The position numbers were made by a program, and so were the translations under genes. 64,000 nucleotides of DNA from Candidatus Omnitrophota bacterium (GTDB lineage: Bacteria > Omnitrophota > Gorgyraeia > Gygaellales > Profunditerraquicolaceae), in NCBI GenBank assembly GCA_026387335.1, contig JAPLLX010000002.1, positions 13,326 through 77,325 on the forward strand. The letters are read 5' to 3'. Positions 3,758 to 9,132 of this stretch are shown piece after piece. The notes under the pieces are model-generated. The model made no database searches and was not told the DNA's origin. It saw only the letters and a list, made by a program, of their open reading frames with translations. How positions within the stretch are numbered: the first letter of the stretch is position 1; each line of letters starts with the position of its first letter.

Positions 3758-4003
3758 ATGCGCCTGGCGATACTTGATCCTAAAAAGGCAATTTGGCAGG
3801 GGATGGCCAAGAAGGTGACTTTGCCGGCGGCCGACGGAGAAATGTGCGTACTGGATTTTCATCAGCCTTTTGTAGTCAGGCTGGCCAAAGGCAAGATAAC
3901 TTTTTCCGGTGAGAACCTTCCGGCTCGGCAGCCGGGTATTCCTATAAAAGACGGTATCGCTTTTATGCGCTCAAATTCTTTGACTGTTTTCGCCCAGACT
4001 TAA
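3758..4003 (+). CDS. atpC: F-type ATP synthase epsilon subunit (N-terminal beta-sandwich only; C-terminal helical hairpin absent)
   Basis: LAILDPKKAIWQGMAKKVTLPAADGEMCVLDFHQPFVVRLAKGKITF matches the epsilon N-domain pattern (V..V..P...GE.GIL..H.P....L..G.I). 81 aa. Confidence 0.5.
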   Translation: MRLAILDPKKAIWQGMAKKVTLPAADGEMCVLDFHQPFVVRLAKGKITFSGENLPARQPGIPIKDGIAFMRSNSLTVFAQT

Positions 4004-4010
4004 ATAATAT

Positions 4011-4223
4011 ATGTCCACATTCGCCTTAATTCTAGTTATGATTTTAAGCACTGCCGGCCCGGCCGCGGTCATTGCCCTGGTGGGTTTTTCCGCGGTCAAG
4101 TCCATAGCGCGTAATCCTTCCGCCTCCCCCAAAATATTCATAGTCATGATCTTGGCTTTTATTTTTTCAGAAGCGATCGCGATTTTGGCGCTTCTGATTT
4201 TATATAATCTTTTTACCAAGTAG
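4011..4223 (+). CDS. atpE: F-type ATP synthase c subunit (proteolipid)
   Basis: Two-helix hairpin, 70 aa, polar loop ARNPSAS, and a carboxylate in helix 2 (FSEAIAILAL). Confidence 0.6.
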   Translation: MSTFALILVMILSTAGPAAVIALVGFSAVKSIARNPSASPKIFIVMILAFIFSEAIAILALLILYNLFTK

Positions 4224-4230
4224 AGGAATA

Positions 4231-4294
4231 AATAGGGACAGCGACCATTTTTCCCTGGTCGCCTAGACAGAAAAATGGTCGCTGTCCCTATTTA
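4231..4294. repeat. REPIN copy 3
   Basis: AATAGGGACAGCGACCATTTTTCCCTGGTCGCCTAGACAGAAAAATGGTCGCTGTCCCTATTTA. Sits between atpE and the b-delta gene inside the ATP synthase operon. Confidence 0.9.
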
Positions 4295-4302
4295 AAAACA
4301 CT

Positions 4303-5016
4303 ATGCTCGTCCAGCTTTTAGCCATCCAGATAGTCACTTTCATAGCCATTATATTTTTATTGCGTTTTCTTTTCTCGCGCCATCTTAAGGTCGCCTTGGA
4401 TAGGCTGAATACCTTGCATGAAGAAAACCTGGCCAAAGAAGAAGAGCTGAATGAGGAGTTGAAAAGGGCCAAAGAAGAGAGTCAGGCGGAAATAGAAAAA
4501 GGCAAAGAAGAGGCCGAGGTCATTATTGAAGACTCTAAAAAAGAAGCCACGCGGATACGCTTAACCCTTGAAGAAGAGGCCAAGGCCCAAGCGGCCAAGA
4601 TCGTCGCTATGGGTAAAGTTGATGCCGAGAAAATGAAGGAGAGTGTGTCCAGGGATATACAAGGCCAGAGCGTGGAATTGGCCTCCAGAATGATCTCCGA
4701 GCTGCTTATTGAAGCGGATAAAGTTGCCCTGCAATACCAGTTTGCCAATGAGATAATCGCAGAGATTGCCCGCCTGCCCAAAGAGCAGTTTAACGTCCAG
4801 GCCAAAGACATAAAAGTCACCTCCAGTTATCCTTTGCTGGACAGGCAAAGAGACGAGTTACAAAAGGTTTTAGGCGAAAAATTAGAGGGGGCCTTTAAGA
4901 TCAAAGAGCAGATAGACCCCAAGCTTATCGGAGGGCTCATCCTGGATATAGGCGGTATGGTTATTGACGGGACCTTAAAGAACAAGCTGCAAAGAATCAT
5001 TCCTTACCTTAAATGA
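4303..5016 (+). CDS. atpFH: ATP synthase b-delta fusion protein
   Basis: N-terminal TM helix plus a long charged coiled coil (b-like). The C-terminus IDPKLIGGLILDIGGMVIDGTLKNKLQRI matches the conserved delta/OSCP C-terminal motif (IDPSLIGG..I.IGD.VIDGS....L). 237 aa. Confidence 0.55.
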   Translation: MLVQLLAIQIVTFIAIIFLLRFLFSRHLKVALDRLNTLHEENLAKEEELNEELKRAKEESQAEIEKGKEEAEVIIEDSKKEATRIRLTLEEEAKAQAAKIVAMGKVDAEKMKESVSRDIQGQSVELASRMISELLIEADKVALQYQFANEIIAEIARLPKEQFNVQAKDIKVTSSYPLLDRQRDELQKVLGEKLEGAFKIKEQIDPKLIGGLILDIGGMVIDGTLKNKLQRIIPYLK

Positions 5017-6491: not shown

Positions 6492-6493
6492 AA

Positions 6494-6875
6494 GATTGCG
6501 TCATTGCGAACCCCGCCTATGGCGGGGTGAAGCAATCTCTGAATATGAGTAATAAAGCAGGTTTTGTTTATCTTATGACAAACAAAATGAATACGGTAAT
6601 TTATACAGGAGTTACAAGCGACCTTCAAAAAAGAATTTATGAACATAAAGAAAAATTAGTTGATGGTTTTACTAAGAAATATAATGTTAATAGATTAGTT
6701 TATTACGAGATATTTGATGGTATAGAAGATGCAATCACAAGGGAAAAACAAATTAAAGCGGGTTCGCGGAAGAAGAAGTTAGATTTAATTAGTTCTATTA
6801 ACCCTGATTTCAAAGACCTTTATTATGAATTATGAGATTGCTTCGGCTGCCTGCAGCAGCCTCGCAATGACGCAA
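6494..6875. mobile_element. Small GIY-YIG cassette bounded by about 45-bp terminal inverted repeats, inserted between atpA and atpG
   Basis: Left end GATTGCGTCATTGCGAACCCCGCCTATGGCGGGGTGAAGCAATCTC (6494-6539). Right end GAGATTGCTTCGGCTGCCTGCAGCAGCCTCGCAATGACGCAA (6834-6875). The TTGCGTCATTGCGA and GAAGCAATCTC blocks are reverse-complementary between the two ends, and each end also carries its own internal palindrome. The interior is AT-rich. Confidence 0.7.
6545..6835 (+). CDS. GIY-YIG domain nuclease (small standalone, YhbQ/UPF0213-like)
   Basis: GFVYLMTN...VIYTGVTSDLQKRIYEH gives the GIY/YIG beta-hairpins plus a conserved Arg and Glu. The ORF track starts at 6527, inside the left TIR; the ATG at 6545 is more plausible. 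Confidence 0.7.
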   Translation: MSNKAGFVYLMTNKMNTVIYTGVTSDLQKRIYEHKEKLVDGFTKKYNVNRLVYYEIFDGIEDAITREKQIKAGSRKKKLDLISSINPDFKDLYYEL

Positions 6876-6886
6876 AGGATAAATAA

Positions 6887-7729
6887 ATGATACCCGCTGG
6901 CAGGCTGAAATCCAACATGCAGTTTAACCGCAACCTCGGGGACTTGATCGAGGTTATGAAACTGGCGGCAACTTCACAGTTTAATCAGTTCCGCCTGCGC
7001 GAAGAACCCTCGCTGGATTTTGTCCAGCTGCTGGATGAAGTCTTCGCGGTACTGCTGGCATCAGGGATAAAAAGCGATTTGCTTACGCCTAATGCAGCGC
7101 TGCCCGCGCTTATTCTCGTGGTAAGTTCCGATGAGGGGTTCCTGGGAGAATTGAACTTCCTCCTGGTGAATAAACTTATGGATATTAAAAGGCCCCAGGA
7201 TAGCGTTGTCTGCGTCGGCGAGCAGGGCGCGCATTACTTAAGAGAGATAGAGGTGAATTTTTCGTCTTTTGATTCTCCGGGGGAAAAGATCGATCCCGAA
7301 AGGTTAGGCAAGATAAGAGATTATATTTTAAAGCAGTATTTAAGCCGGGCAGTGGGCAGTGTTTATGTAATCTATTCGCGTTTTATCAATATTACTTCCC
7401 AGCAGACGGAGTTGGAGGCGTTGTTGCCGCTGGCCCAGGATGCGTCTTCTTCCAGGAAGCCGTTAAGCAATCTTTTGATTGAGCCGGACGCCCGGTCAGT
7501 GATAAAAGGCTGGATTAAATTTTGGCTGGACTTTAGATTTTATCAGATATTCTGGTCGGCCAAGCTGGCGGAGTTTGCCGCCCGGATCATGCATCTGGAG
7601 GGAAGCGTCCAGGAATTAGGTAAGATCAATACGCATTTACGCATGGAATATTTTAAATACTTACACGGGCTCTCGGATAAATCCATACGCGAACTTTCGG
7701 CTTCGCGCCTGTTGGAGAAGAATAAATAA
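6887..7729 (+). CDS. atpG: ATP synthase gamma subunit (divergent)
   Basis: The N-terminus [31 protein letters not shown] parallels gamma I.S.I.SV.NT.KIT.AM.MVAASK.R. Length 280 aa and position between alpha and beta. Similarity is weak. Confidence 0.5.
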
Positions 7730-7731
7730 AT

Positions 7732-9132
7732 ATGGACAATTGCCCAGCTAAGGTAGTCGCGGTTTATGGGTCAGTGGTTGACGCGCAATTTGACGCGCAC
7801 TCTGCCATGCCCAACGTTGGCGCGATGCTCAAAGTTCGCCTGCCTGAGGAAAAGGAAATCGGATTGCAGGTGGTGGAGCACCGCGGAAACAATGTCTGCC
7901 GGTGCATAGCTTTAGGGTTTACTTATGGCGTCTCCCGCAATATGCCGGTCAGCCTGCAGGATAAAGAATTAGCTATTCCTGCTGATCTGAATAAACTTTA
8001 CGGCAGGGTGTTGAACGCCCTGGCTCAGCCCATTGACCACAAAGGAGAATTTGACCTTACCGATTCCATACCCTTAAAAAACCTGTCTTTAGCTTCTGAG
8101 ACGCAGGTTAATTTAGACGTTGAAATAAAGCCCGAGGTCATTTATACCGGGATTAAAATGATCGATCTTTTGTTTCCTTTGCTTAAGGGCTCTAAAAGCG
8201 GCCTACTCGGAGGAGCTGCCTGCGGCAAGACTATCCTTATCCTGGAAATCATCCATAATATAATCAGCTACCAGAGCGGGACCTGTATTTTTGCCGGTGT
8301 AGGAGAGCGTATCCGCGAAGGCAACGAACTTTACCATGAATTTTCCCGCGCGGACCTGCTTAAGCGTTCTATATTGATATTCGGACAGATGAACGAATCT
8401 CCGGGCATGCGTTTTGAAGCGGCGCATACCGCGGTTGCCTTGGCCGAATATATGCTTCACCAGAGAAAAGACGTCCTTTTCTTTATGGATAATATTTTCC
8501 GTTTTGTCCAGGCAGGCAGCGAACTCTCTATTCTCCTCGGCCGTATTCCTTCCGAAGGAGGCTATCAATCTACGCTGACCAGCGAAATAAGCCAGCTGCA
8601 CGAAAAAATCCGTTCGGAAAGAGGTTCAAGCATTACCGCCATTGAAGCAGTATATGTGCCTGCAGACGACCTTACTGACCCGGCGGTTGTGGCCATATTC
8701 GCGCATATGGATAACTTAATCGTGCTTTCGCGTTCCCTCGTCCAGCGGGGGCTGTATCCGGCGATCGACCCGTTACAGTCATCAGCCAATTCTTTGAGCC
8801 CGGCTATTGTCGGCAGAAGGCATTTTGATGTGGCCCAGGATGTATTGCGCCATTTCCGGCGTTACGATGAGTTGGAGAGGATCGTTTCCATTATCGGCAA
8901 GGAAGAGCTTTCTTCAGAGGAGAGAATAATCTTTGACCGGGCTAAAAAGCTGCAGAATTTTCTCTCCCAGCCGTTTTTTACCGCCGAGGTTTATACCGGA
9001 AAATCCGGAGTCTATGTTTCTCTGGAGGATACGATCAGCGGTTGCGAGAGGATAATGAGCGGAGAATTGGATAAGGTAGATGAAGCCAAGCTCTACTCTA
9101 TAGGCAAACTGGAGATTAAAAATGGCCAATAA
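7732..9132 (+). CDS. atpD: ATP synthase beta subunit
   Basis: [15 protein letters not shown]; P-loop GGAACGKT (deviant from GGAGVGKT); DELSEED-equivalent EELSSEE; overall strong. Confidence 0.9.

Follow-up and report, generated by a model that had tools for sequence, protein, structure and literature searches.

Genes for a reduced F-type ATPase within a predicted c-di-GMP-associated, type II secretion-like filament operon of Omnitrophota

Introduction

An F-type ATPase encoded beside pilus genes has already been described in the phylum Omnitrophota. The available text of Seymour et al. (2023, Nat Microbiol, PMC10066038) reports a "non-respiratory" or "symbiotic" F-type ATPase next to type-4a pilus genes in 56 of 111 Velamenicoccia species, V. 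archaeovorus LiM included, with co-location within 10 kb on 57 of 66 contigs; it proposes a function in attaching to, or moving on, host cells and sets apart a separate "respiratory" F-type clade. As far as that text goes, the classification is by the alpha subunit only, with the terms T4aP and "type 2/3", and the subunit make-up is not described. Here we dissect a locus of this kind in a 64,000-nucleotide (nt) stretch from a Candidatus Omnitrophota bacterium (GenBank assembly GCA_026387335.1, contig JAPLLX010000002.1, positions 13,326 to 77,325 of the forward strand; hereinafter the window, whose own numbering is used throughout). It encodes epsilon, c, b-delta, alpha, gamma and beta subunits of an F-type ATPase directly before the GspE/PilB-type assembly ATPase of a machine resembling type II secretion systems (T2SS). 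The headline association is already known; the anatomical detail and the variants lacking a c gene in cis are new.

Several better-characterized systems invite comparison. Mycoplasma species possess Type 2 (G1, gliding) and Type 3 (F1-like X0, MIB-MIP) ATPases, whose gene clusters encode a protein with 12 transmembrane segments (12-TM), a 2-TM large protein and a small cytoplasmic protein with no b or c subunit, and which provide a precedent for F1-like ATPases energising extracytoplasmic machines (PMC12994834). Genomes with an N-ATPase invariably have it as their second enzyme, one that does not synthesise ATP (Dibrova et al., 2010, PMC2881411). [quoted passage not shown] Within Omnitrophota, surveys describe chemiosmotic ATP synthesis as usually the task of a V/A-type enzyme in most of the phylum. 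A 2026 preprint rates F1Fo as "incomplete", since gamma is seldom called; neither the preprint nor its supplement reports an a subunit.

Results

Composition of the ATPase locus

The locus runs from a receiver-GGDEF (REC-GGDEF) gene through genes for epsilon, c, b-delta, alpha, a GIY-YIG protein, gamma and beta to that for GspE/PilB. Calls were made on open reading frames (ORFs) with Pfam and NCBIfam hidden Markov models (HMMs), and all features lie on the forward strand unless stated otherwise. The F1 epsilon subunit (3758..4003, 81 amino acids [aa]; PF02823, 50 bits, residues 1-81) consists of the beta-sandwich domain only and is followed by an Fo c subunit, a 70-aa hairpin (4011..4223; PF00137, 37 bits), and by the 237-aa b-delta peripheral-stalk protein (4303..5016; PF00430 over residues 6-135, PF00213 over residues 75-232). 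F1 alpha (5031..6491; TIGR00962, 544 bits against a cut-off of 484), a stand-alone small GIY-YIG nuclease gene (6527..6835; PF01541, 63 bits), F1 gamma (6887..7729; PF00231, 106 bits) and F1 beta (7732..9132; TIGR01039, 509 bits against a cut-off of 463) complete the set. A sequence-only reading of this region, made without database searches, had called the same genes from epsilon to beta, and the HMMs recovered each of them, including the epsilon, gamma and b-delta calls that it had singled out for such a check (PF02823, PF00231, and PF00430 with PF00213). Its description of the operon as non-canonical, with epsilon first, a b-delta gene, a short epsilon and the a gene absent in cis, likewise stands. 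So does its claim that the atpD stop overlaps the pilB start: the beta stop codon (9130-9132) lies past the pilB ATG (9122), an overlap of 11 nt, with a GGAG 8 nt 5' of that ATG. At the other end, 3 nt separate the GGDEF stop from the epsilon ATG. Promoter and terminator scans of the locus gave counts at the level of shuffled sequence, and an Rfam scan for a c-di-GMP riboswitch or other RNA element found nothing in the operon, its only hits being two tRNAs elsewhere in the window.

The F1 head retains its catalytic apparatus. When aligned with the E. coli subunits and those of about 40 relatives, beta retains GER, the Asp of Walker B, the Arg of YRY/FRF, YVPADD and the adenine-stacking Tyr, and alpha keeps its Walker A motif and Arg finger. 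The head motifs are conserved in 36-40 family members, with GxxxxGK[TS], GER, DN(I/V)FRF, YVPADD and LYPA(I/V)D of beta conserved in 40. The P-loops, GGAACGKT in beta and GDRQIGKT in alpha, had been regarded as deviant, which is not borne out: both match the Walker A consensus GxxxxGK[TS] and are functional-looking variants of it, with every catalytic residue kept. Alpha had also been described as Cys-rich. A motif IYCWIGG does replace the canonical IYVAIGQK, but the description applies to nothing beyond that motif, which reflects the sole systematic change in this subunit, namely AIGQK to WIGG[NSP] in all relatives (IYCWIGGS in the window). The Gln-Lys pair of canonical AIGQK contacts the nucleotide at the non-catalytic sites, and with GQK replaced by GG[NSP] these sites may be altered. 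The N-terminus of alpha is about 17 residues shorter than that of E. coli alpha, family-wide. As far as conserved residues can tell, the F1 head (alpha3beta3-gamma-epsilon) is catalytically intact.

A central stalk of gamma and epsilon is present on the Pfam matches given above. Identity to the E. coli subunits is 43.5% for beta, 37% for alpha and 21% for gamma; gamma is highly divergent (TIGR01146, 80 bits, under the cut-off of 194), and gamma, epsilon, c and b all score under the NCBIfam equivalog cut-offs. Epsilon had been read as the N-terminal beta-sandwich alone, and PF02823 indeed spans residues 1-81 of its 81 residues with no C-terminal helices; these helices, present in E. coli epsilon, are absent in 33/33 family epsilons. 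They are inhibitory, and their loss fits an enzyme running in hydrolysis. Since gamma is so divergent, the "incomplete" F1Fo of the 2026 preprint is the expected outcome.

The c subunit has an RNP loop and a membrane Glu (FSEAIA) that aligns with D61 of E. coli in 33/33 sequences. To go by these motifs it is a proton-type subunit. The Na+ motif of c subunits is defined as ES/ET, the N-ATPase type, in place of which c here has EA. In the main clade, where median identity is 79% for c, 72% for beta and 53% for gamma, no protein of the cluster is more conserved than c and the GspG pseudopilin, which are level with each other.

The peripheral stalk departs further from the canonical plan. A phmmer search of the PDB matched b over residues 9-153 of the b-delta protein and the delta C-terminal domain over about 155-236. 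In its confident AlphaFold (AF2) model (predicted local distance difference test [pLDDT] 89.7), about 133 residues (2-134) form one helix, and a short helix and an alpha/beta domain (169-235) follow. In Foldseek comparisons this C-terminal domain superposes on delta/OSCP C-domains at 1.5-2 Å root-mean-square deviation, and the overall shape is also like V/A-type subunit E and FliH. None of the three (PDB phmmer, AF2 model, Foldseek) revealed a delta N-domain, and all 120 homologues among the matches listed are about 237-241 aa long. The proposed b-delta fusion therefore holds in part: the b transmembrane helix, the stalk helix and the delta C-domain are joined in one protein, but the delta N-domain is absent. 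A peripheral stalk of b2 and a full delta, with its N-domain bound to the alpha N-helix, is not what is encoded here. In canonical enzymes the N-terminal segment of alpha binds the delta N-domain; with the latter gone and the alpha N-terminus short, two interacting elements have apparently been lost together. Across the family's proteins, regulatory and stator-attachment elements are systematically missing, as judged by comparison with their canonical counterparts.

The missing a subunit

ATP-synt_A (PF00119) was found neither between the GGDEF gene and c, where the sequence-only reading had already noted that atpB is lacking, nor anywhere in the 64-kb window. Polytopic proteins encoded in the window are limited to a TPR protein of 677 aa, a pair of ABC-2 permeases, ComEC and MurJ. 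E. coli AtpB as query gave no match in any of the flanks (about 10 kb) of the module in 46 related genomes (see below), and the a subunit was also not found within about that distance in five remote variants. Of the unassigned polytopic ORFs in the 46 flanks, just two are of suitable size; one encodes a PMT_2 protein, the other a prepilin peptidase. A canonical operon, reached in the same way from a gamma of 25% identity, served as positive control: there PF00119 was detected, b and delta are encoded separately and epsilon is full length.

Two candidates for a stator were considered and set aside. A conserved hypothetical protein of 228-275 aa encoded upstream, taken as a divergent a subunit, gave no PF00119 signal, and its C-terminal part (244-507) has one hydrophobic stretch. 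The 677-aa TPR membrane protein encoded downstream, taken as a V-type I-like stator, gave TPR matches only and is not conserved in two of the related loci (L002 and L004).

Conservation across Omnitrophota and remote variants

The named homologues of beta, gamma and b-delta all come from Omnitrophota/Omnitrophica. Scanning with a gamma profile and keeping one genome per species yielded 46 loci, which were annotated with the proteins of the window (individual loci bear L numbers); they include V. archaeovorus LiM (L044, NZ_CP019384.1) and a second complete chromosome. The near-universal order is Peptidase_MA_2, REC-GGDEF, epsilon, c, b-delta, alpha, gamma, beta, GspE, GspF, PilMN, PilO, GspG, and this synteny, seen also in L044, holds across the 46 species-level genomes at gamma identities of 34-76%. 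GspE/PilB directly follows beta in 31/31 testable loci, and epsilon, c and b-delta lie upstream of alpha in 31-32 of 33, the exceptions having masked runs of N. The apparent lack of epsilon and c in L038 (CP070797.1) and L007 is an artefact, because the N runs fall in the upstream half. The sequence-only reading had asked whether relatives share the epsilon-first order and the atpD-pilB coupling; they do, with gaps that are short or overlapping. Median gaps are 3.5 nt between GGDEF and epsilon and 14 nt between beta and GspE, and PilMN and PilO overlap by 4 nt in 20 of 29 loci. GspF is conserved in all loci with enough flank, and Peptidase_MA_2 is found upstream in most such loci and downstream of GspF in remote variants. 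At the level of gene content and order, this is a strongly conserved module whose linkage is phylum-wide and operon-like.

Several public records with the module (L008, L015, L021, L029-L032, L043 and L045) are titled "uncultured Planctomycetales/Planctomycetia" or "Parcubacteria group"; these titles are probably binning or naming artefacts, because the loci are syntenic with those of Omnitrophota.

Other, remote gammas (24-28% identity) belong to clusters that lack a, adjoin GspE and are rearranged. In one reordered clade the succession is giant protein, epsilon, (transposase), b-delta, c, alpha, gamma, beta, REC, GspE, GspF, Peptidase_MA_2 and pseudopilins, and its c retains FAEAIA and RNP. 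A low-GC clade has extra stand-alone MshEN and PilZ proteins. On two high-GC contigs (L058, 2613-3552, and L060, 478-1414; GC 61-64%) epsilon directly adjoins b-delta, with a helix-turn-helix gene upstream, and no c gene was found between epsilon and b-delta or elsewhere on these short contigs; a third high-GC contig has beta and then GspE. In none of these shuffled versions does a occur, and some lack c in cis. In L054 (10001-10903) and L055 (1731-2633) a gamma-like gene (PF00231, 300 aa, 23% identity with the window gamma) stands alone; its surroundings are archaeal (ribosomal S27e and S24e, Spt4, Rpb7), and further ATPase genes are missing from its vicinity.

The filament machine and its c-di-GMP bracket

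The genes after beta specify a T2SS-like apparatus. The GspE/PilB-type assembly ATPase (9122..10735; PF00437, 420 bits; PF05157) carries at its N-terminus the c-di-GMP-binding motif MshEN (NF053729 at 52 bits, above its cut-off of 38). It is followed by the GspF/PilC platform protein (10813..12051; PF00482, 196 bits), a GspL-like PilM-PilN fusion (12122..13495; PF05137, with PF11104 called in L004), a PilO/GspM-like protein (13563..14093; PF04612, PF04350) and the major pseudopilin GspG (14105..14500; PF08334, 97.7 bits). Two N-methyl minor pseudopilins come next (14493..14909, and 14848..15450, the latter GspJ-like with a weak T2SSJ match), PF07963 being found on three proteins of the pseudopilin set. 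A GspK-like protein (15419..16336; HHH_3 and weak T2SSK, with PF21687, T2SSK_1st, called in L061) closes the series. GspE, GspF, a GspL/M-type platform, GspG as major pseudopilin and minor pseudopilins are thus all present, as in T2SS/type IV filament systems. The conserved cluster contains no secretin (GspD/PilQ), prepilin peptidase or PilT; a prepilin peptidase gene lies upstream in L038 only.

On the other side of the ATPase genes, the REC-GGDEF diguanylate cyclase (2873..3754; PF00072 and PF00990) has an intact GGEEF motif and RxxD I-site, and a Glu (E56) at the position of the phospho-acceptor Asp in the window and in 28/28 relatives. This suggests a cyclase that is phosphorylation-independent or phosphomimetic. 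Control by c-di-GMP is a constant theme, because a GGDEF cyclase, an MshEN domain on GspE and the extra PilZ and MshEN proteins of remote variants recur around the ATPase. Before the cyclase lies the conserved upstream neighbour of the module, a Peptidase_MA_2 protein (1111..1983; called by phmmer family, with PF13485 called in L001, L002 and L004).

Further upstream, some loci (L001 1-3379, L002 1-4084, L004 1-5532, L061 1-6133) encode a giant beta-propeller/adhesin-like protein of 4,500-6,100 aa and a conserved hypothetical protein (228-455 aa). The window begins inside the gene for the hypothetical protein, whose C-terminal end is ORF 244-507. The window also has genes for a ComM-like Mg-chelatase ATPase (18896-20512, reverse strand) and ComEC (56708-58090, forward strand), and the HHH_3 domain of the GspK-like protein is of the ComEA type.

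Relationship to described ATPases

Like the "symbiotic" loci of Seymour et al. (PMC10066038), so far as the available text describes them, the present locus comes from Omnitrophota and has its F-type alpha and beta genes no more than 10 kb from a cluster of the type IV pilus kind; its proteins are of the same family as those of the V. archaeovorus LiM locus cited there (our L044, recovered with the gamma profile). To that text we add a list of the subunits (c and b-delta present, no a, truncated epsilon and delta, no alpha N-helix), together with the GGDEF/MshEN bracket, the T2SS-like pseudopilins (GspG, J, K) and the variants without c in cis. In the part of the source data available, the KEGG orthology (KO) lists of genomes 58 and 221 contain K02123 and K02124 (V-type I and K) without V1 A/B, with F-type alpha and beta listed; this could reflect incompleteness or the mis-assignment of a divergent c.

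Compared with a canonical F1Fo (atpIBEFHAGDC), the module shares alpha, beta, gamma, epsilon, c, b, the delta C-domain, the catalytic residues, the c carboxylate and the RNP/RQP loop. It differs in having no a or AtpI in cis, an epsilon that comes first and lacks C-terminal helices, b fused to a delta without N-domain, an alpha without N-terminal helix, a place inside a secretion/pilus operon, and a divergence far beyond that of ordinary bacterial enzymes. The N-ATPase likewise has no separate delta gene and a long b protein that carries the delta C-terminal part, and its model TIGR03321 aligns b-delta residues 7-231 to positions 9-240 of 246, that is, end to end, at 51 bits against a cut-off of 225. 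However, the cut-offs of the alt_F1F0 (N-ATPase) models are missed throughout (506 vs 750, 466 vs 752, 51 vs 225), and the a subunit, AtpQ/AtpR, the order atpDCQRBEFAG and the Na+-type c of the N-ATPase (PMC2881411) all have no counterpart here.

FliH is, like b-delta, a long helix with a delta-like C-domain, and Foldseek matches b-delta to the FliH-FliI complex 5b0o (E about 8e-3). FliI forms a homohexamer with no c-ring, whereas the module encodes a heterohexameric alpha/beta head with gamma, epsilon and c, and we treat the likeness to FliHIJ as an analogy, not as membership. With c-di-GMP-activated MshE/PilB ATPases the locus shares the MshEN domain on GspE/PilB and a diguanylate cyclase in the same operon; in the literature searched, no such system outside Omnitrophota with an F-type ATPase between the cyclase and the assembly ATPase was found.

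Mobile elements within and around the module

The window contains eight elements resembling repetitive extragenic palindromes (REPs; 1979-2043, 2794-2857, 4231-4292, 10735-10796, 12054-12116, 13491-13553, 47531-47592 and 49324-49385), each an inverted pair of the 22-mer AATAGGGACAGCGACCATTTTT with arms about 40 nt apart (16 arms against 0 expected). Six of the eight occupy intergenic gaps from Peptidase_MA_2 to PilO, among them that between c and b-delta (4231..4292), and the first two (1979-2043 and 2794-2857) bracket an IS200-like Y1 transposase gene (2125..2832; PF01797, 51.7 bits) in an arrangement of the type formed by REPs and REP-associated tyrosine transposases (RAYTs). The transposase occurs at this position in only a few loci (L014-L016, L031) and is not a conserved part of the module. 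The GIY-YIG gene had been reported as part of the operon; it does lie between alpha and gamma, in the window and otherwise only in L001 (8783-9043) and L011 (4541-4837). It is a lineage-specific insert, because only these have it there, and not a component of the module; it looks like a mobile or selfish insert. A further GIY-YIG copy lies near the V. archaeovorus locus (L044, 5225-5506, reverse strand).

Discussion

The locus is probably, though by no means assuredly, one copy of an Omnitrophota-wide accessory module in which a reduced F-type rotary ATPase sits inside a c-di-GMP-controlled, T2SS-like type IV filament operon and acts as an ATP-hydrolysing motor for that machine. The enzyme would run in the direction of ATP hydrolysis, as a motor produced alongside that machine and at its service, and would not be the cell's ATP synthase, a role that in most of the phylum would fall, following the surveys, to the V/A-type enzyme. 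As for coupling, we favour an arrangement with no canonical a, in which the F1 would be held by the b-delta stalk while gamma-epsilon, plus the c-ring where present, would be driven against a non-canonical membrane partner; our second choice would be an ATP-driven proton pump using an a subunit encoded elsewhere. We lean to the former because a has never been recruited to the cluster and c can be absent in cis. Several observations weigh against this interpretation. Alpha and beta exceed the NCBI equivalog cut-offs for ordinary atpA and atpD, and short epsilons occur in canonical enzymes too, to the extent that NCBIfam has epsilon models of 88-102 residues. The strong conservation of c and its invariant membrane Glu, the reordered variant included, would be expected if the ring translocated ions and had an a-type stator to work against. 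The absence of a was established in cis, in the window and the flanks of about 10 kb, so that an a gene may lie elsewhere; the operon is predicted from gene spacing, and the physical link between ATPase and filament machine is predicted from genes.

Two accounts concern the coupling in particular. One, possible if somewhat unlikely in our judgement, goes beyond an accessory motor: the module would be a new kind of secretion/pilus motor, with an F1 truly without a, a b-delta anchor like FliH or subunit E, and a rotor (a c-ring in most clades but not all) passing torque or conformational work to the filament platform or to the export of giant surface proteins. It would then be the T2SS/type IV pilus counterpart of FliHIJ in T3SS and an intermediate in the loss of Fo, a first and then c. 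The other, which we hold to be unlikely but a serious contender, is a dedicated ATP-driven proton pump, that is, a true F1Fo whose a is encoded elsewhere and which is co-expressed with the filament machine and provides a local proton-motive force in a cell that is tiny and fermentative. Besides ATP, a T2SS depends on proton-motive force to function, and a pump would be consistent with the invariant Glu and very strong conservation of c, the retained b transmembrane helix, the intact catalytic residues and an epsilon whose lack of inhibitory helices fits hydrolysis. Yet in over 50 loci, with the other genes rearranged time and again, the a gene has not once joined the cluster, and some clades have no c gene in cis. 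In the source data of Seymour et al., as far as available, genome no. 221 also lists the alpha and beta KOs without K02108; this counts for little, because the same list also misses c, b and gamma.

That the locus is an ordinary housekeeping ATP synthase with its atpB elsewhere, the adjacency to pilus genes being conserved synteny without a functional link, seems improbable. The scores of alpha and beta just mentioned would suit it, as would the best PDB matches of beta, which are canonical F1 beta chains. It has to contend, however, with the low identities to E. coli (43.5%, 37% and 21% for beta, alpha and gamma), with gamma, epsilon, c and b under their equivalog cut-offs, with the loss of both the delta N-domain and the alpha N-helix, and with an embedding between GGDEF and MshEN-GspE, by overlapping junctions, that is found phylum-wide and in remote high-GC relatives; moreover, the available text of Seymour et al. 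has a separate "respiratory" clade, and V/A-type enzymes are common in the phylum. Homology to the Mycoplasma Type 2 (gliding G1) or Type 3 (F1-like X0) ATPases, as the "type 2/3" label implies, is more doubtful still, and we consider it very improbable. The alpha tree of Seymour et al., in the text available, is reported to group these proteins with Mycoplasma type 2/3, and the logic is a common one, in that an extra F1-like ATPase, with divergent epsilon-like and gamma-like subunits, is genetically tied to a surface machine and thought to pass the energy of ATP hydrolysis across the membrane. But the dedicated NCBIfam models (NF045863, NF045858, NF045936 and NF045934) are all missed (MMOB1660 403 vs 600, MMOB1670 411 vs 850, MSC_0619 325 vs 520 and MSC_0618 376 vs 570 bits), these scores also being under the canonical atpA/atpD scores of the module's own alpha and beta, and in the PDB search the window beta matches canonical beta chains at 415-425 bits and the G1 beta of M. 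mobile (9io5_A) at 336. The module, moreover, has c and b-delta and no 12-TM protein, the reverse of the Mycoplasma clusters. To judge by HMM and PDB scores, the label is not supported. Lastly, the missing a, the truncated epsilon and delta and the mobile-element debris in and around the operon (REP, RAYT, GIY-YIG) might suggest a decaying, non-functional remnant of an atp operon that lost atpB. Against this stand six intact genes under purifying selection across at least 46 species, invariant catalytic motifs and the 79% median identity of c; by these sequence-conservation data the idea is effectively refuted, and we give it next to no chance.

If the ATPase does serve the filament machine, it would be the second independent case, after FliHIJ of T3SS and flagella, in which a secretion system has captured a rotary ATPase of the F type. 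With a head that is still heterohexameric, a central stalk and, in most cases, a c-ring, it would represent a living intermediate in the repurposing of rotary ATPases. In practical terms, genomes with the module come out of KO-based pipelines with an "incomplete F1Fo", since the divergence of gamma, c, b and epsilon is too great for them to be called, and metabolic reconstructions should not take the module for a broken ATP synthase. Lying beside giant surface proteins and under c-di-GMP control, the module bears on how the ultra-small, probably predatory Omnitrophota attach to or attack other cells.

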